The notes beneath the pieces were generated by a model. The model was not told the origin of the DNA and did not search any database. It saw nothing but the letters and a program-made list of their open reading frames with translations. DNA of 51,262 nt from Candidatus Saccharimonadia bacterium. GTDB lineage: Bacteria > Patescibacteriota > Saccharimonadia > CAILAD01 > BJGX01. The stretch lies in contig JBIIIT010000001.1 of NCBI GenBank assembly GCA_044234435.1, forward strand, positions 1 to 51,262. The letters are read 5' to 3'. Shown here piece after piece: positions 163-37,826 of this stretch. The translations under genes and the position numbers were made by a program. The stretch's first letter is position 1. Each line of letters begins with the position of its first letter.

Positions 163-2059
163 TTGCAGTATCTTTTTTCTTTTTAGAATTATTGTTACGT
201 AATTTTACCATTGTCAGTATTAAAATAACAGATATGATTGAGACCAATACAAGTACCATTGGCAAATAATTATTGGTTATATTTGAGCTTGCTAAAGCAC
301 CTGAAGAAATAGGATCAATTAATTCGATCTTGCTAAAAGAGGAAAAAGAAAGCCCTAGGTTCCAGGCCGTACCTTTTAATAACTCAGAGGGCGCCAAGGT
401 CTTGGTAAGAACAATTTTATCTCTGGCAGAAATAAACTTAACTTTAGCATCAAATATTGTGGCATTACTTGGGGAGTTTACTTGGTATGATGTAAACGAA
501 ATAAAAGGTAGAATTGTCCAATTTGTGGCATTAATCTTAGCATCATTGGAAACTTTAGGGATTTCGGTTGTGTAAGAAAGCTGAACATTTTCATACTGGT
601 AGTTTGTGTCCAAACCAGCCTTAGTTACAGCAACTGGCTCGGAATCATTTTCGCCCCAAATTGCAAAGGCAAGATGATCTATATCGCTGATTCCGAAATT
701 ATTAAATTTCTCTCCCCAGGTTGGATCTAAATTAATCCAGCCATTACCTGGAATGTAAACCTGCACCCAAGAGTGAAGCGAATCGCTGACGCTCTTTGAT
801 TTTTTCAAATCACCAGAATAAGCGTATCCCACGGGCATACGAGCTGGTATTCCAGCTGCCCTAAGAAGAGATATTGTAAGATCCGAATACTCTAAACACA
901 CTACATTATTTGGATTATTTAAAGCCTCAAGGCCACCTTGTCTAATATTATATTTTATTTTTTCGTTGTTATAATTTAGGGTTTTTAATACATAGTCATT
1001 AATAGACTTTACTTTATCTATCACAAGGGACTTGTCGGCTGTTAACTCGTTGGCTTTTTGTTTAATCTGATTATTATCAGCAGGCCAATACTTTGTTGCT
1101 TTTGTGTAATTTGCTCTTATTGGCTGAGGAATATCTTTTATGTCTCCGCTCTTTGTAAAATCATATTGTATATACCTAACGTCAGCCAGCACATCCGCCT
1201 TGATGTCCAATTTCTGATTTGCCTCGAGTTTGTACTTAGCAATTACATTGCCATCTCCATCCACTCTAGTTGAAATTGGAGCAGGATCAATTCTTTCCAA
1301 AAATGAACTTTGCGATTCTGTGCTAGGCGGCAACGCTATCTCAAAGTCCTTTGTACTACTAGTGTCGTTCACTAAAGGATAAATAAAGTTTGCTTTGTAC
1401 GTTGTGGAGTCTCCAAAAAGCAGCTGGACTGAATTGTTAAAAAGGTCATCTTTGGAAAAGCTGAAAGTCTTTGTGCTGGCTGTCTGGCTGGTTAGCTTAG
1501 GCAATTTACCGAACCCATGAACCTGACCATAATCATTGGGTACGGTTAGAGTAACATTATATTCATCTCGATTCTCGGCTGAAACACCAGGGATATAAAC
1601 AACATTAGCTCGACCTTTATTCTCGACAATATCCGGGGTGCTGTATTGAATAATAAAGCTCCAATTTAAGCCCTGCCCAACATTGGCCCTATTGAAGTTA
1701 ACCTTTATTTCTGTGTAGTCATAACTAAAACCGACGCTCTCTCTTGTGATTTTCGCAGTTTCGTATGGGATTGAGCTGCCATTTGAATAGTAAACTTGAA
1801 TAGAATTAATATTTGCGCTCGGGGTCGATACCCTAATACTATCCAAATATTGAGTTCCAGTGTTATTGGTAATATTGTAAGTTTCTTTAACTAATGTGTT
1901 GCCATCATTTCTGACTAGATAGTTAACATCGATATTATAATTAAAATTTTCAGAGGCTCGTGCTTTAGTTAGGCTAAATAAAAAGCTTAGTGAAATTATG
2001 GTCAGCAATAATATTGCTACCAGAAAAGTTTTTTTCATCTTTTTGAATCTGAAAAGCAT
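143..2059 (-). CDS. membrane-anchored transglutaminase-like (cysteine protease fold) surface protein
   Basis: 638-aa ORF. It has an N-terminal signal/TM segment (FLVAILLLTIISLSFLF) and a C-terminal TM followed by a Lys-rich tail. The transglutaminase-core Cys/His/Asp context is present: VVCLEYSDLTISLLRAAGIPAR ... SLHSWVQVYIPGNGWINLDPTWG. Confidence 0.7.
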   Translation of the reverse strand: MLFRFKKMKKTFLVAILLLTIISLSFLFSLTKARASENFNYNIDVNYLVRNDGNTLVKETYNITNNTGTQYLDSIRVSTPSANINSIQVYYSNGSSIPYETAKITRESVGFSYDYTEIKVNFNRANVGQGLNWSFIIQYSTPDIVENKGRANVVYIPGVSAENRDEYNVTLTVPNDYGQVHGFGKLPKLTSQTASTKTFSFSKDDLFNNSVQLLFGDSTTYKANFIYPLVNDTSSTKDFEIALPPSTESQSSFLERIDPAPISTRVDGDGNVIAKYKLEANQKLDIKADVLADVRYIQYDFTKSGDIKDIPQPIRANYTKATKYWPADNNQIKQKANELTADKSLVIDKVKSINDYVLKTLNYNNEKIKYNIRQGGLEALNNPNNVVCLEYSDLTISLLRAAGIPARMPVGYAYSGDLKKSKSVSDSLHSWVQVYIPGNGWINLDPTWGEKFNNFGISDIDHLAFAIWGENDSEPVAVTKAGLDTNYQYENVQLSYTTEIPKVSNDAKINATNWTILPFISFTSYQVNSPSNATIFDAKVKFISARDKIVLTKTLAPSELLKGTAWNLGLSFSSFSKIELIDPISSGALASSNITNNYLPMVLVLVSIISVILILTMVKLRNNNSKKKKDTANDSKEK

Positions 2060-2090
2060 ATGCCTATTTTAGCATAAGCAATAGGTGTAA

Positions 2091-2876
2091 TTAGATTATT
2101 TCCGCCGACAAGCAATGATTATATAGATTCTCCCAATCTTGCATGGAAAGCTCTTGAGCTCTAGCGGTTGGAGCAATGCCGGAAGTTTCTAATAATTCTA
2201 ATACCTTTGAAGTCTCTATTCCTAAACCGCCCGCTAAGCTATTGCGCAACATCTTCCGCTTTTCACCAAAACCGGCCTTTACTAGCCTAAATAACTTTTT
2301 AGTGTCAGATTCAAATGCTGGCCTATTTAATCTAGTAATTTTTATGACTGCAGAATCAACCTTAGGGATTGGCTCAAACAATTCTTTATTTACGTCTATA
2401 ACAAATTCTGCCTTTGCATAGTATTGAACCGAAAATGCCAGAACCGACAAATCCCCTGGCTTGGCCAAAATACGCTGGGCAACCTCTTTTTGTACCAACA
2501 AGACCATTAGTTGCGGAGGATTTTGAGCTTCTAAAAGACTGCGAATTAAATTAGAAGTCAGATAATAGGGAATGTTAGCAACTACCTTGTATTTTGGGGG
2601 CATTTGGCTATAGTCAAACTTTAGTATGTCCCCCTCGATTAATTTAAAATTTACCTTGCCCTGGAATTTATTATTGAGCCTTGGCAACAAATCCCTATCA
2701 GCCTCCACGGCAACAACATTGGCACCACTATCGACAAGTTTTTGAGTGAGTGTGCCAAGTCCTGGGCCAACCTCTAATAAGTTATCTTCTTTAAAAATCT
2801 CGGCGGACTTAATGATTTCATCTAATACAAATTCATCTCTTAGCCAATTTTGACCAAAACTTTTTTTAGCTTTCAT
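2091..2876 (-). CDS. rsmA: 16S rRNA (adenine1518/1519-N6)-dimethyltransferase
   Basis: N-terminus KKSFGQNWL, SAM motif EVGPGLGTLT and the NIPYY motif. The 261-aa length is typical of KsgA/RsmA. Confidence 0.9.
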   Translation of the reverse strand: MKAKKSFGQNWLRDEFVLDEIIKSAEIFKEDNLLEVGPGLGTLTQKLVDSGANVVAVEADRDLLPRLNNKFQGKVNFKLIEGDILKFDYSQMPPKYKVVANIPYYLTSNLIRSLLEAQNPPQLMVLLVQKEVAQRILAKPGDLSVLAFSVQYYAKAEFVIDVNKELFEPIPKVDSAVIKITRLNRPAFESDTKKLFRLVKAGFGEKRKMLRNSLAGGLGIETSKVLELLETSGIAPTARAQELSMQDWENLYNHCLSAEII

Positions 2877-2891
2877 TTAGACATTTTAGAT

Positions 2892-4061
2892 CTAATTGGG
2901 GAATTTTGGTAGCCCAAGCTTAGTTGAACAGCCAGGATGCTGGCTCCAGAACCCACCTTTGCTGGCTTTGGCGTTCTTGATAACCATTTCGTCCTGTACT
3001 TGCGGGGGTGCCAAATCGGCTCGTGCATATCCAGTATTCCATCGGTTCCAGGTTGCTGCTGAGAACTGGTAAGCTCCATAATATCCATTTCCGGTATTGG
3101 CATTATAACGACCCCCTGTTTCACACATTCTTAATTTTAATAAAAGCTGAGCGTTGTCACCTACTGCATCAATTTTTGTTCCTCTGATAACTATTTTTGC
3201 GACTGCCTCTAGAGTTATTTTTTCATCTATTTTTTGTCTACTTAATTCGACAGTGCCTTTTCTATTAACAATATAGCTAACGATCTTTTCACCTTGCTTT
3301 CCTTCACTTTCGGTCAGCCTGTAAGATAATGGCTTTGTGGGGTCGTCCTTATATTGTACTTCGGGCTCTATAGCTACCCGCTCCTGAACAACATCTTGAG
3401 TTAATTTTAGAATTTTTATATTCATTCCTTTATAAATAGGGTCAGAGAAACTTAAACCGGCCAGGTCTGACTCGTTTACACTCATTCCTTTTTCCTCCAG
3501 AAGTTCACCAACTGTTTTCTTCCAAGTTCTGAACTCAAATGTTTTAGTACCTATCATCACATCCACAGGAGTCGCTCTTTCAATTTTTATTCGCTGACCA
3601 ACAACACCATCGAGCACAAAATTATCACTTCTGTCTAAACTAACTTTATCTTCATCGAAGACCTGGATTCCCGAAGCTTCTACAACTTGCCTGGGGCTGC
3701 GATAGCCGCTAAGCACTGTCACTTTTTTGTCTCCATCAATAACTAAAGAAGGATAGGCCCTATAAACATTTATATTATAAAAGGGTTGATTGAGCGGTGT
3801 TTCTGCAATTGGCTCAACTACATCACCTTTTTCGAGCTTTACACCACTAAGCCTTAAAGCCTCACCAATTGTTTTGGCATCAGTTGGTATTGTCTTTTTG
3901 TTACCATCAGCATAGATAGTGACTAATTTTTTATTTTCTGCTTTTGCGGTATTAGTAAGTGCTACTTGGGACTGCCCAAATACAACCGAAAATACAACAA
4001 AAACAAACAACGAAGAGACAGCAATCACACTCATAAATGGGTAATGCTTTTTCCCCTCCAT
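2892..4061 (-). CDS. RpfB-like resuscitation-promoting-factor / muralytic protein (TM anchor, DUF348-like repeats, G5-like region, Rpf transglycosylase-like domain)
   Basis: N-terminal TM segment (VIAVSSLFVFVVFSVVF). Repeated segments of the form V.V..DG....v.t.a.TVge.L resemble DUF348. The C-terminal CETGGRYNANTGNGYYGAYQFSAATWN ... WSQHPGCS matches the Rpf lysozyme-like domain signature. Confidence 0.75.
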   Translation of the reverse strand: MEGKKHYPFMSVIAVSSLFVFVVFSVVFGQSQVALTNTAKAENKKLVTIYADGNKKTIPTDAKTIGEALRLSGVKLEKGDVVEPIAETPLNQPFYNINVYRAYPSLVIDGDKKVTVLSGYRSPRQVVEASGIQVFDEDKVSLDRSDNFVLDGVVGQRIKIERATPVDVMIGTKTFEFRTWKKTVGELLEEKGMSVNESDLAGLSFSDPIYKGMNIKILKLTQDVVQERVAIEPEVQYKDDPTKPLSYRLTESEGKQGEKIVSYIVNRKGTVELSRQKIDEKITLEAVAKIVIRGTKIDAVGDNAQLLLKLRMCETGGRYNANTGNGYYGAYQFSAATWNRWNTGYARADLAPPQVQDEMVIKNAKASKGGFWSQHPGCSTKLGLPKFPN

Positions 4062-4179
4062 TGATAGGTTTAGTTTTTTTCTACGATATTCAGAAGTTTT
4101 ACTAAACTTAGGTAAAATAATAAGCCTCTTCGGTTAAATTAATAAAAGGCTTTTGTTTTTGTTTGTATGTACGTAGTTA

Positions 4180-4209
4180 ATTTTAGCTTTAAGCATAAGT
4201 GCTTGTCAA
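4180..4209 (-). promoter_or_regulatory. sigma70-like promoter candidate for the rpfB-like gene (TTGACA-18-TAAAAT)
   Basis: On the minus strand, TTGACA is the complement of 4204-4209 and TAAAAT is the complement of 4180-4185, with an 18-nt spacer. This would give a 5' UTR of about 110 nt. Confidence 0.4.
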
Positions 4210-4253
4210 TTTAAAAACTGAACAAAATATTAGCTCTTCAAACCTGTTAACAC

Positions 4254-6401
4254 CTACAGCTTCTTCAGGGGTGCGTATTGTAAATTAAGTGTCTTTTTCA
4301 TTCCCGATTCAAAGCTGACATCCACCTCGGCACCCGAAACAGACAGCACCTTACCTTGGCCAAATGCCGGATGCATCACATTATCTCCTACTGCAACCTG
4401 AGCAATTTCTACTTCATCTGGAAAGTCGCTATCAAATGCTTCGCGTCTACTATCAGACAGAACTGAGCCCATTGATCCTATCGGCTCTTCGACCATTTCG
4501 ACAGGAATGTCCGAAATAAACCTTGAGGGAACATTGTGCTGAGTATTTCCATAAAGCATTCGAGACGATGCATTAAGCATATATAACTGCTGCTTAGCTC
4601 TAGTCATACCTACGTAGCAAAGACGCCTTTCTTCCTCTAGTTCGTCGGGCTCAAAGAATGTACGTGAGTGTGGAAACACCCCTTCTTCCATTCCGGCCAT
4701 AAAAACCACTTCAAACTCCAGCCCCTTTGCTGAATGAAGAGTCATAAGACTAACCGAATCTTTCATGCCATCATGCGAATCCAGATCCGAAACTAATGCC
4801 ACTTCTGTTAGGAAAGTTTCTAAGTCCAAGTCTTTGTAAACTTTAGCAACCCCCAAAAGCTCTTGAATATTTTCCACTCTATCTTCGGCAGATATTGTTC
4901 CGTCCTGCAAATAGCCAATATAATCTATTCTTTTTATAAGCGCATCCATCAAATCATAAACGTTCATATCTTGTTTAGATTTGAGATCCAAAAGTATCCC
5001 GCCTACAATCTCTATTTCTTTTAAGGCTTTGCCTCTTAGGCCAGGTATAACGCTAGGATTTGCAAGGGTCTCCAGTACATCTGGCTCGTACTTTTCTAAA
5101 TAATCAATTATTGAGGCAATGCTTTTTGCACCAACACCTCGCGTTGGGACATTTAATATTCGGGTAAGACTAACTAAGTCATTAGGTTGAAATATCACTC
5201 GCATATAGGCAAGAATGTCCTTTACTTCGCGCCTGTCGTAGAACCTGGTTCCGCCAACCACTTGATATGGGATATTGTAGCGCAGAAAACTTTCTTCCAA
5301 ACTTCGCGATTGAGCGTTGGTCCGATAAAGTACTGCAAAATCACTCAATCTTAAATCAGGGTTAATGCCGCGCAATCTTTCGATTGTTTGAATTATTGTT
5401 CTTCCCTCAGCCATTTCGTCTTGCACAGACAAAACATGTACTTTTTCACCCAGACCTAAATCGGTCCAAAGCTTTTTACTACTTCGGGATAGGTTTTTAG
5501 TTATCACTGAATGTGCGGCATCTAGTATCATTTGCGTAGAGCGGTAGTTCTGCTCGAGTTTGATCACTTTTGCGCTTGGATAATCAGACTCAAAATTTAG
5601 TATGTTCTGGTAATTTGCTCCGCGCCAAGAATAAATGCTCTGCCAGTCATCGCCCACCACGCATAGATTACTATGTTTCTTGGCAAGCAATTTAATAAGC
5701 TCATATTGCGCGTGGTTGGTATCTTGATACTCATCCACCAAAATATATTGAAATTGGTTCTGGTATTTTTCTAAAATATCATGCTCGTTCTTGAACAGTT
5801 TTACCAACTCCATAATAAGATCATCAAAATCAAAAGCCTTAGCCTTTCGAAGTTCCCTTTGGTAGATTGGATAAACTTCGGCAGCCATAAGCTGAAGCTG
5901 ATTCGAAGCCATGCTGCGATATTTTTCTGGTCCAATCAGTTCATTTTTAGCTGATGATATAACCCAAGCAATTCCTGAAGGAGTAATAGCTTTATCGCTA
6001 ACGTGCATACTCTTTAATATCTTTTTAATAAGTGCCTGAGAATCACCCGAATCGTAGATTAAAAAGTTACTGCCCATACCAACCCGCTCGGCTTCACGCC
6101 TGAGGATTCGATTGGCTATGGAGTGAAACGTGCCTAAAAAGGGGATTGGGTTTGCTCCGGCTTCATCGAAGCCAAGAAGGCGAGATACTCTGGAGCGCAT
6201 TTCGCCAGCGGCCTTGTTGGTAAAAGTAACTGCCAGGATATTGGATGGCGGGATTTTGCGTTCAGATATCAAATAGGCAATTCGGTGAGTGAGAGTCTTA
6301 GTTTTTCCACTACCAGCTCCAGCCAGCATAAGGATGGGTCCTTCGGTCGTTTCAACTGCTTCTGCTTGAGACTTGTTTAATCCTTCAAATAATTTACTCA
6401 T
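4254..6401 (-). CDS. pcrA: ATP-dependent DNA helicase PcrA/UvrD family
   Basis: Walker A AGAGSGKT near the N-terminus, DEYQDT (motif II), and YRS/QNYRST and VGMTRAK motifs. 715 aa. Confidence 0.9.
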   Translation of the reverse strand: MSKLFEGLNKSQAEAVETTEGPILMLAGAGSGKTKTLTHRIAYLISERKIPPSNILAVTFTNKAAGEMRSRVSRLLGFDEAGANPIPFLGTFHSIANRILRREAERVGMGSNFLIYDSGDSQALIKKILKSMHVSDKAITPSGIAWVISSAKNELIGPEKYRSMASNQLQLMAAEVYPIYQRELRKAKAFDFDDLIMELVKLFKNEHDILEKYQNQFQYILVDEYQDTNHAQYELIKLLAKKHSNLCVVGDDWQSIYSWRGANYQNILNFESDYPSAKVIKLEQNYRSTQMILDAAHSVITKNLSRSSKKLWTDLGLGEKVHVLSVQDEMAEGRTIIQTIERLRGINPDLRLSDFAVLYRTNAQSRSLEESFLRYNIPYQVVGGTRFYDRREVKDILAYMRVIFQPNDLVSLTRILNVPTRGVGAKSIASIIDYLEKYEPDVLETLANPSVIPGLRGKALKEIEIVGGILLDLKSKQDMNVYDLMDALIKRIDYIGYLQDGTISAEDRVENIQELLGVAKVYKDLDLETFLTEVALVSDLDSHDGMKDSVSLMTLHSAKGLEFEVVFMAGMEEGVFPHSRTFFEPDELEEERRLCYVGMTRAKQQLYMLNASSRMLYGNTQHNVPSRFISDIPVEMVEEPIGSMGSVLSDSRREAFDSDFPDEVEIAQVAVGDNVMHPAFGQGKVLSVSGAEVDVSFESGMKKTLNLQYAPLKKL

Positions 6402-6447
6402 TTATATATCATACACTGTAAGACTAATAGATTTAAGCATAAACACA

Positions 6448-6476
6448 TTGACTTTTTATACTTTTTATGGTAATAT
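6448..6476 (+). promoter_or_regulatory. sigma70-like promoter (TTGACT-17-TAATAT) driving the high-GC ORF
   Basis: TTGACT at 6448-6453, a 17-nt spacer, and TAATAT at 6471-6476. The GC content jumps immediately downstream of the -10 box. Confidence 0.5.
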
Positions 6477-6523
6477 ATAGGTCTTCTGGACAACCCTGTC
6501 TGGATGGAGCAAGGAGAAATACC

Positions 6524-6886
6524 TTGAAGGCAAGCAAGAAGAAGGCGATCATCGCCGCCCTCCTGACGGCCTGTGCTGTGTTGGCACTGATCATGGGAGG
6601 CATGGGCTCGTCGGCCTCGGCCGGTGGCTACAGTGGTGTCTCGACCGTCGCACTGCGGCAGGTCGAGGAGCTGTCGGGTCAGGCGAAGCTTGCAGTCAAG
6701 ATCTGCAACGTGTCGTCAGACGCTCGGCGCAGCTCCCTCATCAACAAGTTCGAGCGTCGTAAGTTCGAGCTCGACCTTGAGCTTGACCGTCTCGGCTACC
6801 CCTTCCAGTCGCCGATGCTCACCGAGTTCATGAACTCTCTTACGGTCGAGGGCAAGTGCCCGGCACCCGCCGGCGCCCTCGGCTAA
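6524..6886 (+). CDS. small secreted or membrane-anchored protein of unknown function, encoded in a high-GC island
   Basis: TTG start at 6524, preceded by AAGGAG (6511-6516) with a 7-nt spacer. The track's ATG at 6467 lies inside the predicted promoter spacer. The N-terminus (L/M)KASKKKAIIAALLTACAVLALIMGGMGSSASA-GG looks like a Sec signal with an ASA cleavage site, and LTAC is also lipobox-like. The mature part has two Cys. Third codon positions are overwhelmingly G/C in this frame. A GC-rich hairpin terminator follows. Confidence 0.65.
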   Translation: MKASKKKAIIAALLTACAVLALIMGGMGSSASAGGYSGVSTVALRQVEELSGQAKLAVKICNVSSDARRSSLINKFERRKFELDLELDRLGYPFQSPMLTEFMNSLTVEGKCPAPAGALG

Positions 6887-6890
6887 CTCA

Positions 6891-6940
6891 AGGCCCCGCA
6901 CATTCCACAACGTCGTGGATTGTAGCGGGGCCTCTCTTTT
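6891..6940 (+). terminator. rho-independent terminator (GC-rich stem AGGCCCCGC...GCGGGGCCT followed by CTCTCTTTT)
   Basis: Inverted repeat 6891-6899 / 6925-6933 with an inner TCCAC/GTGGA pairing, followed by a T-rich run. It starts 5 nt after the TAA stop at 6884-6886. Confidence 0.7.
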
Positions 6941-6948
6941 ATATGCAA

Positions 6949-7473
6949 TTATTGCTTCTTTGCTAGCTCGATACTATCTAAAACAACCTTCTTGGCAGCC
7001 TCGGCGTCTCCCCATCCATCAAAACTCACAGGGCTACCAGTCCATCCCTTTTTCCAGTCCTTGTAGTGAGCATAAAAATGCTCAATAACCTTCTGGAAAT
7101 TTTCTCCTAAGTCTTTAAGGTCTTTAATGTGATCCTTGCTTACATCATCGGCCGGTACACAAATTAGCTTTTCGTCTTTTTCTCCATCATCAATCATGTA
7201 TAAGACGCCAATTGGCCGAGCGGGCACAACGGTTCCGTGCGGCACTGATTCGTCAATTATCAATAGTCCGTCTAGAGGATCGCCATCCTCACACATTGTG
7301 CCGGGCACATAGCCATAGTCGCTAGGGTATCCAAGTGCAGTTCCGTTTACTCGATCTAAAAATAACCTTCCGGTTTCCTTATCGAATTCATACTTGTTCT
7401 TTTCGCCTTTACGAATTTCAATTACCAAATTTACAATTTCTGGTGATTTTTCACCATAGCTGAGTTCAGTCAT
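6949..7473 (-). CDS. ppa: inorganic pyrophosphatase (family I)
   Basis: 174 aa, with DGDPLDGLLI and a YE.DK...L.LDR-type N-terminus typical of soluble PPase. Confidence 0.9.
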   Translation of the reverse strand: MTELSYGEKSPEIVNLVIEIRKGEKNKYEFDKETGRLFLDRVNGTALGYPSDYGYVPGTMCEDGDPLDGLLIIDESVPHGTVVPARPIGVLYMIDDGEKDEKLICVPADDVSKDHIKDLKDLGENFQKVIEHFYAHYKDWKKGWTGSPVSFDGWGDAEAAKKVVLDSIELAKKQ

Positions 7474-9865: not shown

Positions 9866-10297
9866 TTACTTTTTACCGAATAGTTTGCCGAAAAATCCAG
9901 GCTTTTTTGGCTGCTCTTGAGCTGGGCCATTTGCATTCACATCAGCTGAGGGTGGTGTGTTCTGTTCTGCTGTTGATTGAGAGGCTTCTACGTCTGCATT
10001 CTCAGAAATTTTAACAGGTGGCTGTTCTAATTCATTTTCATTGAGCTTGAATACATTGGCTTGGCCTTGTGGGGCAGAATTTATGCCCGGCACAGGATTA
10101 AATCCTTTATTCATGGCCGCAGGCTTAATATCCATACCTTTAGGCTGGCTGTTTGAAGCTGCAGCCTGCTGAGCTAATAGTTCTTCTTTCTCGGCTTGAG
10201 CCTTCTGCGCTTTTTGCTCATGCCCTTCTGGCCTTAAATCCAGAGTTCCATTGGATGTTTGATCAAATTTTTCCATAGTTGGCTGAATGTTTGTCAT
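9866..10297 (-). CDS. hypothetical low-complexity (Gln/Ala/Pro/Asn-rich) protein
   Basis: 143-aa ORF with no recognisable domain and a basic C-terminal tail (KKPGFFGKLFGKK). Coding status is supported only by ORF length and gene spacing. Confidence 0.4.
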   Translation of the reverse strand: MTNIQPTMEKFDQTSNGTLDLRPEGHEQKAQKAQAEKEELLAQQAAASNSQPKGMDIKPAAMNKGFNPVPGINSAPQGQANVFKLNENELEQPPVKISENADVEASQSTAEQNTPPSADVNANGPAQEQPKKPGFFGKLFGKK

Positions 10298-10425: not shown

Positions 10426-10500
10426 GGTCCCATCGTCTAGGGGTTAGGACACCAGGTTTTCATCCTGGCAACAGGGGTTCGAATCCCCTTGGGATCACCA
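10426..10500 (+). tRNA. tRNA-Glu (anticodon UUC), CCA encoded
   Basis: Hand-folded cloverleaf. Acceptor GGTCCCA/TGGGATC, anticodon stem CCAGG/CCTGG with loop TTTTCAT, and T arm AGGGG-TTCGAAT-CCCCT. Confidence 0.9.
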
Positions 10501-21690: not shown

Positions 21691-21767
21691 TGGTCGGGGT
21701 GAAAGGACTCGAACCTTCGACCTCAGCGTCCCAAACGCCGCGCGCTAGCCAACTGCGCCACACCCCG
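21691..21767 (-). tRNA. tRNA-Pro (anticodon UGG), CCA encoded
   Basis: The reverse complement folds as CGGGGTG...CACCCCG-A-CCA, with anticodon loop TTTGGGA. Confidence 0.9.
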
Positions 21768-21784
21768 CTATATCTATATTAACA

Positions 21785-21861
21785 TGGAGGGCCATCTGGG
21801 ATTCGAACCCAGGACACTCTGCTTAAGAGGCAGATGCTCTAACCAACTGAGCTAATGGCCC
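21785..21861 (-). tRNA. tRNA-Lys (anticodon CUU), CCA encoded
   Basis: The reverse complement is GGGCCAT...ATGGCCC-T-CCA, with anticodon stem TCTGC/GCAGA and loop CTCTTAA. Confidence 0.9.
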
Positions 21862-21872
21862 GCTTTTTAAAA

Positions 21873-21949
21873 TGGTACGCCCTGAGAGATTCGAACTCCC
21901 GACCTTCTGGTCCGAAGCCAGACGCTCTATCCAGCTGAGCTAAGGGCGC
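21873..21949 (-). tRNA. tRNA-Arg (anticodon UCG), CCA encoded
   Basis: The reverse complement is GCGCCCT...AGGGCGT-A-CCA, with anticodon stem TCTGG/CCAGA and loop CTTCGGA. Confidence 0.9.
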
Positions 21950-23115: not shown

Positions 23116-23190
23116 GCGGGTATCGTATAATGATTATTACTCCTGCCTTCCAAGCAGGTGATGCGGGTTTGATTCCCGCTACCCGCTCCA
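23116..23190 (+). tRNA. tRNA-Gly (anticodon UCC), CCA encoded, with atypical D and T loops
   Basis: Perfect acceptor (GCGGGTA/TACCCGC), anticodon (CCTGC/GCAGG, loop CTTCCAA) and T stems (GCGGG/CCCGC). The D loop AATGATT lacks GG, and the T loop is TTTGATT rather than TTCGAAT. Confidence 0.8.
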
Positions 23191-23257
23191 TAAGAATTAA
23201 ATCCCGCCTGCCGGGATTAATTTATTTAATAAGGCAAGCTATAATAGTTAGTTGTTA

Positions 23258-23334
23258 GCCCCCGTAGCTCAGCTGGATAGAGCAACAGTTTTCTAAACTG
23301 TGGGTCGTAGGTTCGAATCCTGCCGGGGGTACCA
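23258..23334 (+). tRNA. tRNA-Arg (anticodon UCU), CCA encoded
   Basis: GCCCCCG...CGGGGGT-A-CCA, with anticodon stem ACAGT/ACTGT and loop TTTCTAA. Confidence 0.9.
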
Positions 23335-23470
23335 TTAAATAAATATGTTTTTCTTAAGCGGTTTATGAAACCAAGCCTAGCTGTTTCGTAAATCGAGAGG
23401 AAAAATAATATGAAGCCTCAATAAATAATTTAAATAATTATTTATTTAAAACGAAATATTATTTCGACGA

Positions 23471-23548
23471 GGCGGGTGTAGCTCAGTTGGTTAGAGCGTC
23501 AGATTGTGGCTCTGAAGGCCGTGGGTTCGAAACCCATCACTCGCCCCA
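23471..23548 (+). tRNA. tRNA-His (anticodon GUG) with genome-encoded G-1 and CCA
   Basis: G-1 followed by GCGGGTG...CACTCGC-C-CCA, with anticodon stem TCAGA/TCTGA and loop TTGTGGC. Confidence 0.9.
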
Positions 23549-37749: not shown

Positions 37750-37826
37750 GGGCCCATAGCTCAGTTGGTTAGAGCACCTGCCTTTTAAGCAGGGTGTCGT
37801 GAGTTCGAGTCTCACTGGGCCCTCCA
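37750..37826 (+). tRNA. tRNA-Lys (anticodon UUU), CCA encoded
   Basis: GGGCCCA...TGGGCCC-T-CCA, with anticodon stem CCTGC/GCAGG and loop CTTTTAA. Confidence 0.9.

Follow-up and report, generated by a model that had tools for sequence, protein, structure and literature searches.

We identified a 547-nt cassette (positions 6402–6948) in a 51,262-nt stretch of contig JBIIIT010000001.1 (assembly GCA_044234435.1) from a Candidatus Saccharimonadia bacterium; this whole stretch is referred to below as the window. The cassette is bounded by the start codon of pcrA (6399–6401, minus strand) and the stop codon of ppa (6949–6951, minus strand), and its junctions were defined by three-way alignment of the window with one related locus that is filled (L003) and one that is empty (L029). 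Taken as a whole, it is best explained, quite probably in our judgement, as a self-contained mobile single-gene cassette that occupies a replacement-type islet, encodes an exported product and is likely of foreign GC origin. The unit comprises an arm rich in A+T, a promoter close to the consensus, a 5′ untranslated region (UTR) with a strong Shine–Dalgarno sequence, a 120-codon open reading frame (ORF) and an intrinsic terminator. Sec would export its product, and cleavage at ASA↓GG would release or display an 87-amino-acid, three-helix, disulfide-bonded domain. The alleles are exchanged between lineages and reshuffled internally via homologous recombination in the flanks and frame; the DNA would be taken up by natural transformation, and the GC-rich composition would stem from a high-GC genome in which the sequence arose or resided for a time before ameliorating slowly.

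The cassette was recognized as an insertion because related genomes lack it. In the outgroups, whose ppa identity is 81–83%, the gap between ppa and pcrA measures only 21–48 nt, and in L029–L031 (ppa 94% identical) the slot is empty, with the ppa stop abutting the pcrA start (gap of 0 nt). An alternative insert of 424 nt was found in L026 and L027 (ppa 94% identical) at positions 4026–4449. Its left end (TTATNCATNATACAC), promoter, UTR and terminator (CCCCGC...GCGGGG) resemble those of the cassette, and its payload is an unrelated 64-amino-acid ORF (MTKKYGVELVAVILSFLALFCCALAY...) with an N-terminal hydrophobic helix and a G+C content at third codon positions (GC3) of 0.51. Homology of this payload to the 120-amino-acid family was rejected (tblastn, E > 1). 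The slot has four states: empty, the GC-rich class seen in the window, a 52%-identical mid-GC homologue of 111 amino acids, and the unrelated 64-amino-acid membrane or secreted ORF. These states are interleaved in the ppa tree. A preliminary description of this DNA had named the presence or absence of the segment between pcrA and ppa in relatives as a check on its reading, and the segment proved to be polymorphic.

Replacement-type flexible genomic islands and islets of aquatic bacteria hold alternative, often non-homologous surface-related genes at one locus, which are exchanged via conserved flanks. Similarly, the cassette has a fixed position between conserved core genes, sharp breakpoints and predicted exported products; empty, filled and alternative contents occur at 97–99% flank identity, and the cassette history conflicts with that of the flanks. 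Judged by its alternative contents and boundaries, the slot behaves as a miniature replacement-type flexible islet. It differs from the known islets in its far smaller size, with one ORF in 547 nt, and in its location within a housekeeping array of an epibiont of the candidate phyla radiation (CPR). The unusual traits of the cassette are a single promoter/UTR/terminator frame shared by swappable payloads and one payload class at twice the genomic GC3.

Comparison of closely related loci delimited the exchanged segment. L003 (filled) and L029 (empty) were 95–100% identical in every 60-nt interval over approximately 3 kb of flanks, and L013 (filled) and L030 (empty), both from one metagenome (contig prefix Ga0214921), were 99.0% identical over the first 300 nt of pcrA. 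L011, which carries the 111-amino-acid allele, and L015, which carries a GC-rich allele, were approximately 97% identical over 5.8 kb save for approximately 470 nt at 37–62% identity. The divergent block extends from just past the −10 box to the 3′ arm of the terminator, and the two alleles are approximately 53% identical despite the approximately 97% identity of the genomes. Between L003 and the window, the cassette was 82–97% identical and the flanks approximately 75%. The last 25–50 nt of L003 ppa were window-like, and this mosaic 3′ end therefore marks a recombination tract. Compared with L007, the ppa of the window was 96% identical and the gene only 78%.

Synonymous divergence (dS) gave a consistent picture. 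The dS of the gene was 0.32–1.06 between the window and L001, L003, L004 and L010, compared to 1.3–2.7 for ppa in the same pairs. For pcrA, dS was 3.4 between the window and L004 and was saturated beyond computation for L001 and L010. The nearest neighbour of the 5′ half of the gene differed from that of the 3′ half, and the alleles are therefore mosaic. Identity matrices, dS and intragenic mosaicism together indicate that the history of the islet is incongruent with that of the flanking core genes. Sharp breakpoints, a gene tree at odds with the flanks and a gene dS far below that of the flanks (above 2 or incalculable in most flank comparisons) indicate that Saccharibacteria lineages exchange the cassette, and the simplest mechanism is homologous recombination via the conserved flanks and frame. 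The sequence comparisons show a GC-rich class that has spread over at least five species-level lineages after their divergence. Gain, loss and swap of a single gene between genomes with 97–99% identical flanks, and between lineages with saturated synonymous sites, amount to population-level gene flow in an uncultivated CPR lineage.

Cultured Saccharibacteria take up DNA by ComEC-dependent natural transformation, and cassettes flanked by homologous sequence are thereby integrated at intergenic sites (PMC10633639). By analogy, natural transformation would most plausibly be the route of DNA uptake here, and gene flow of the cassette is a prediction of the natural competence shown in the cultured members. 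In Southlakia epibionticum, expression cassettes were inserted at an intergenic neutral site by natural transformation with approximately 1-kb homology arms (PMC10633639). The present cassette resembles that insertion as a promoter–ORF unit placed between conserved genes via flank homology, and the L003/L029 pair resembles its outcome. It differs in being a natural case, in abutting co-directional rather than convergent genes, and in that transformation is deduced rather than observed. The ppa/pcrA junction naturally tolerates insertions and, together with the compact native promoter/terminator frame of the cassette, could serve genetic work in this group.

An insertion sequence, a miniature inverted-repeat transposable element, an integron cassette and a prophage remnant were each considered and rejected: the neighbours are housekeeping genes, the promoter and terminator motifs of the frame each occur once in the window, and PHROG and viral searches gave no substantial match. 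A 10/11-nt AT-rich direct repeat brackets the insert (CTCATTTATAT at 6397–6407 and CTCTTTTATAT at 6934–6944). The repeat may be left over from the original insertion or may have arisen by chance in AT-rich DNA. Deletion between the two copies would not recreate the observed empty site.

The expression frame of the cassette begins with an AT-rich left arm (6402–6447), of which the left end TTATNCATNATACAC (6402–6416) with its TATGAT motif is kept in all three payload classes (window, L011 and L027 as representatives). Read on the minus strand, the arm has the arrangement GTG-TATGAT-N6 (ATATAA)-ATG, with TATGAT at 6413–6408, 6 nt upstream of the pcrA start (6401–6399). TATGAT may be the −10 element of a leaderless pcrA transcript, supplied by the insert after it split pcrA from ppa. 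On the plus strand, a promoter scan located a sigma-70-type promoter, TTGACT-17-TAATAT with an extended −10 TG (6448–6476), at the place where the preliminary description had put it. This promoter is near-invariant across five aligned carriers and is common to L011 and L015 up to the swap breakpoint just past the −10 box. Transcription is predicted to start near 6483. The predicted 5′ UTR (6483–6523, plus strand), read from the sequence, carries an AAGGAG Shine–Dalgarno sequence (6511–6516) 7 nt ahead of the start codon, and the segment GGATGGANCAAGGAG from this region is kept among carriers. In the minimum-free-energy fold, CAAGG (6510–6514), which overlaps the Shine–Dalgarno sequence, pairs with CCTTG (6522–6526), which contains the TTG start. 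Both segments are kept among the GC-rich alleles, and their pairing may act as a translational control element.

The frame ends with a predicted Rho-independent terminator (6891–6946, plus strand), composed of a nested hairpin at 6891–6933 and a U-rich tract. The hairpin, CCCCGC...TTCCAC-loop-GTGGA...GCGGGG, has a folding energy of −32.2 kcal/mol (z = −8.6) and was missed by a simple terminator scanner. It is kept in all three payload classes, with double (compensatory) changes in 4 of 16 pairs. Its stability, the U-tract and the compensatory changes all argue for a terminator. The Shine–Dalgarno sequence, the TTG start at 6524, the 120-codon frame rich in G/C third positions and the GC-rich hairpin just ahead of the ppa stop (6949–6951), all proposed from the letters alone in the preliminary description, were recovered in the present analysis.

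The coding sequence (CDS; 6524–6886, plus strand) consists of a TTG start, 120 codons in all and a TAA stop, and was annotated from its GC3, its homologues and its ratio of nonsynonymous to synonymous divergence (dN/dS) as the precursor of a small exported protein of an orphan family. The DNA alignment of homologues showed third-position substitutions, in-frame 6-nt indels and Ser codons switching between AGT and TCG. The dN/dS of the gene was 0.14–0.45, and its dN exceeded that of the flanks five- to sevenfold. A crude per-segment estimate reached a maximum dN/dS of 0.41, and this estimate detected no positive selection. These features of codon periodicity, purifying selection and in-frame indels indicate that 6524–6886 is a genuine protein gene. 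A longer ORF of 139 amino acids from an ATG at 6467 was rejected, as this ATG falls within the promoter and neither L015 nor L018 has the 19 extra codons. One 139-amino-acid member (P0136) falls within the cluster of the small protein.

An island of high GC in an AT-rich genome often proves to be an RNA gene, and the whole transcript folds with a z score of −4.85, so a structured non-coding RNA was considered in place of a protein gene, together with a chimera of the assembly. Rfam returned transfer RNAs elsewhere in the window only; no family exceeded the threshold in 6350–7000 even at E ≤ 10, the sub-threshold match there being BjrC68 (16 bits against a cutoff of 39). The codon-periodic substitution, a GC3 far above GC at second positions and the in-frame indels also speak against an RNA gene. 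The same junctions recur in more than 14 independent assemblies (JGI, ENA, NCBI and Logan), and the island is therefore not an assembly artefact, which lays to rest the concern over a chimeric contig raised at the outset. Both alternatives are effectively refuted.

The predicted product has a Lys-rich n-region, a hydrophobic region of approximately 19 residues and a c-region SSASA, followed by a predicted signal peptidase I site, ASA↓GG. The signal peptide (residues 1–33; 6524–6622, plus strand) was delimited by the invariance of SASAGGYSG and by a helix in the AlphaFold2 model, and the mature domain of 87 amino acids (6623–6883, plus strand) by the same model and the alignment. SASAGGYSG is invariant across all 11 clusters, including the 52%-identical homologue, and the wider form of the motif is SASA↓GGYSG(V/A)ST. 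These features are those of a Sec signal peptide with a signal peptidase I site, at which cleavage is predicted. The AlphaFold2 model had a mean predicted local distance difference test score (pLDDT) of 68, with 78–88 in the core. It placed a helix at residues 5–24, then a disordered linker, and mature-domain helices at residues 39–62, 66–90 and 99–108. The two cysteines of the mature domain, C61 and C112, are invariant in the alignment, the 52%-identical homologue included, and a C61–C112 disulfide is suggested by the model. The signal peptide, the cleavage site and the two mature cysteines described earlier are accordingly retained, and the lipobox-like LTAC named with them is not conserved. 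A lipoprotein was rejected, as LTAC occurs only in the window allele, the others having LTVC, LTIC, MMVC or IMVC, and the 111-amino-acid allele has another residue in place of the Cys. The hydrophobic stretch also runs on past the lipobox-like Cys.

Searches of Pfam, NCBIfam, PADLOC and PHROGs with all three payloads gave nothing significant. A sequence profile search of the PDB with the protein gave no match, Foldseek of the AlphaFold2 model against the PDB and BFVD gave none at E ≤ 0.001 and returned generic helical bundles only, and no description of the gene surfaced in the literature searched. Any proposed role is a guess, since neither sequence nor fold searches found a functional homologue. 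On that footing, the most probable role of the product would be that of an extracellular factor, variable between strains, that works at the cell surface in contact with the host, interaction with phages or recognition of kin. This proposal is based on export, the accessory distribution, the high dN compared to the flanks and two variable patches in the per-segment dN and dS (residues 63–76 and 93–108). The exported orphan family and its alternative payloads are thus a candidate for a strain-variable surface factor that could govern the host or phage specificity of the epibiont, and few such determinants are known.

Streptococcal pherotype (comC) and bacteriocin alleles are polymorphic secreted-peptide loci that are exchanged by transformation in competent Gram-positive bacteria. 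The cassette shares with them a small product with predicted export, discrete divergent mosaic alleles, homologous replacement and membership of a naturally transformable group. Unlike these loci, it has a Sec-type AxA leader rather than a double-glycine leader, has no adjacent kinase, transporter or immunity gene, and encodes a mature part predicted to be an 87-amino-acid helical domain rather than a short peptide.

A selfish toxin-like module akin to type I toxin–antitoxin systems, whose product would be a small peptide or protein targeted to the membrane, was also weighed. Antisense read-through from pyk–tpiA–ppa would oppose the messenger RNA (mRNA) of the cassette, and the essential-gene neighbours would favour its retention. 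Both unrelated payloads start Lys-rich and continue into a hydrophobic helix, the antisense placement in a tight co-directional array makes read-through from ppa possible by gene arrangement, and a U-tract adjoins the terminator hairpin on just one strand. A PHROG holin match could be added to these points, but it is weak (E = 0.004), covers the N-terminal hydrophobic region only and is probably compositional. PADLOC gave no match, the product of 120 amino acids is above the usual size of type I toxins (approximately 60 amino acids or less), and there is no obvious addiction, since empty sites are common. We know of no type I toxin that resembles a 120-amino-acid protein with a cleavage motif and a folded, disulfide-bearing ectodomain, and we regard such a module as very unlikely. 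The single-gene islet with an exported product remains the preferred reading.

The base composition changes abruptly within the cassette. G+C counts were 38/60 in 6541–6600 and 13/60 in 6401–6460, exactly as given in the preliminary description. The CDS has a G+C content of 62.3%, compared to a mean of 38.8% (standard deviation, 4.2; maximum, 51.8%) in other 363-nt segments of the contig (z = 5.6) and 39.0% for the contig as a whole. Its G+C content at the first, second and third codon positions was 0.59, 0.47 and 0.81, respectively, compared to a GC3 of 0.34–0.40 in pcrA, ppa, tpiA and pyk. The GC3 of every other credible gene in the 51 kb was 0.22–0.42, and the cassette CDS is the sole real gene above 0.42. 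Codons for Lys, Glu and Gln ended in G or A at 19:0 in the CDS and at 114:194 in the four neighbour genes (p = 1.7e-8). The two shadow ORFs noted before, at 6624–6833 (plus strand) and 6716–6910 (minus strand), are present.

The family distribution was examined by protein searches, a profile search over 1.84 billion representative proteins and a word-indexed search over 5.8 billion clusters. The profile search returned this family, the 111-amino-acid relative and three spurious matches (repeat-driven or short). Neither search found a homologue outside a narrow Saccharibacteria clade, Actinomycetota included, and the protein was not found in viral contigs, phage records or plasmid records. Ten homologue clusters at 70–100% identity were obtained, and those with readable context, a reading that leaves out P0002 and P0007, all lie in one slot: pcrA(−) / gene(+) / ppa(−) tpiA pyk. 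There were two genome matches, ‘Candidatus Saccharibacteria bacterium LBMAG_Ca.Saccharibacteria_epi.bin1’ and the metagenome-assembled genome UBA4664. The latter carries the 111-amino-acid homologue (52% identical; GC3 0.48) in the same slot, and the cluster of this allele is present on at least 49 contigs. With a mid-GC homologue in the same slot, the family is therefore resident in the Saccharibacteria clade. The window belongs to a freshwater Saccharibacterium of the UBA4664-related clade.

These findings bear on the proposal, made in the preliminary description, that a native promoter drives a gene recently captured from an actinobacterial host of high GC, the product being a secreted or lipid-anchored factor. 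The GC3 of 0.81 and the exclusively G-ending Lys, Glu and Gln codons would fit such a capture, as would the AT-rich, native-looking promoter/terminator frame and a net drift from G/C to A/T at third positions (see below). Cultivated Saccharibacteria also grow on Actinobacteria (PMC10633639; PMC9166423), from which a host of this kind would be presumed for the freshwater clade. Homologues are restricted to the narrow Saccharibacteria clade in all of the searches above, the same slot is filled by a mid-GC homologue, all traceable transfers run between Saccharibacteria, and the lipobox is not conserved. Direct host capture is therefore unlikely in our estimate. What holds of the proposal is the foreign-looking composition and the horizontal mobility, seen in the empty site of an approximately 99%-identical sister; the traceable donors are other Saccharibacteria, and an origin in Actinomycetota was not borne out. 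A related reading, in which the payload came from a high-GC host or shuttled between host and epibiont within the native frame, spread by transformation and acts as a determinant of host interaction or host range, is similarly doubtful and would require a donor homologue that is unsampled or has diverged beyond detection by hidden Markov models. The description had also held that a restriction of homologues to equally AT-rich relatives of matching local GC would mark the gene as ancient and lineage-specific. The homologues are indeed restricted in this way, yet ancient origin and vertical descent cannot be the whole account of the gene, because its presence or absence is polymorphic among near-identical genomes.

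Acquired genes are said to ameliorate towards the base composition of the recipient, a concept of Lawrence and Ochman. As expected of amelioration, the anomaly of the cassette is concentrated at third positions, and GC3 declines across the GC-rich alleles from 0.82 (window) to 0.63 (L004). By parsimony, third-position changes from G/C to A/T (S>W) and the reverse (W>S) numbered 97:31 or 64:30 (2.1–3.1 to 1), varying with the tree and rooting. In simulations on the same tree, the ratio had a mean of 1.42 (95% interval, 0.77–2.41) under stationarity and was 3.2–4.0 under neutral decay to the genomic composition. Since the excess of S>W over W>S exceeds the stationary expectation, the data lean to a slow loss of GC, which fits foreign origin and amelioration and is compatible with partial maintenance. 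Unlike a standard case of amelioration, the cassette has no identifiable donor lineage, a mid-GC homologue fills the same slot, and the S>W excess is below the neutral-decay prediction.

The GC richness may instead have arisen in place, through GC-biased heteroduplex repair at a recombining locus or selection for a structured GC-rich mRNA. In bacteria, GC3 has been reported to be linked with recombination and GC-biased conversion has been proposed (PMC4450053); the locus here is a recombination hot spot, with swapped alleles and mosaicism inside the gene. The GC3 of each of the three payload classes (0.48, 0.51 and 0.63–0.82) is above the genomic 0.33–0.42. In most alleles, CDS folding was more stable than that of dinucleotide shuffles, with z scores from −0.9 to −4.7 across alleles (mean of about −2.6); segments of ppa gave about −0.7. 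The ratio of S>W to W>S, which falls short of neutral decay, would agree with an origin in place, but at 2.1–3.1 it is above the stationary value of 1.4. The flanking housekeeping codons within 50 nt of the island show ordinary GC3, and to our knowledge there is no bacterial precedent for a local GC effect so large. An origin in place is thus improbable, though worth keeping in view, and the most likely source of the GC richness is a high-GC genome in which the sequence arose or resided before it ameliorated slowly. A GC3 of 0.8 in a 39% GC genome offers a test case for amelioration against local GC-driving forces in bacteria.

Several points weigh against the overall interpretation of a mobile cassette with an exported product and foreign GC origin. 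The excess of S>W is marginal against stationarity (p about 0.045) and lies at the low edge of the neutral-decay simulations. The low dS of the gene could partly reflect selection on synonymous sites, and the phylogeny of slot states was built from ppa alone (525 nt). Terminal inverted repeats and a transposase or integrase were not found at the insert, and no mobile-element hallmark accounts for the first insertion. The transcription start, cleavage, disulfide and export are predictions from sequence and from an AlphaFold2 model of medium confidence (mean pLDDT 68), and the sequence and fold searches found no functional homologue.

The cassette lies antisense within an otherwise contiguous pyk–tpiA–ppa–pcrA array. 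The left flank is the gene for a PcrA/UvrD-type helicase (4254–6401, minus strand), annotated from the ORF list and from Pfam UvrD-helicase domains on orthologues, and the right flank is ppa, encoding inorganic pyrophosphatase (6949–7473, minus strand), annotated from the ORF list and PF00719 on orthologues. The ppa protein of the window is 100% identical to the cluster representative P0015. All other genes between 143 and 10297 are on the minus strand, and the cassette gene is the sole plus-strand gene there, as described before.

In two of the outgroup loci (L022 and L023, 81% ppa identity), an 866-amino-acid protein with a Peptidase_S74 match and faint collagen matches is encoded ahead of ppa at 858–3458, replacing pyk and tpiA; its architecture appears tail-fibre-like. 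Downstream of pyk in the window lies an ORF for a Gln/Ala/Pro-rich protein of 143 amino acids (9866–10297, minus strand), which has a clearly divergent counterpart of 122 amino acids in L011 and, judged from this comparison, is a second fast-evolving small protein nearby. Elsewhere, the window contains two transfer RNA clusters of three genes each (21694–21949, minus strand; 23116–23545, plus strand) and single transfer RNA genes at 10426–10497 and 37750–37823.

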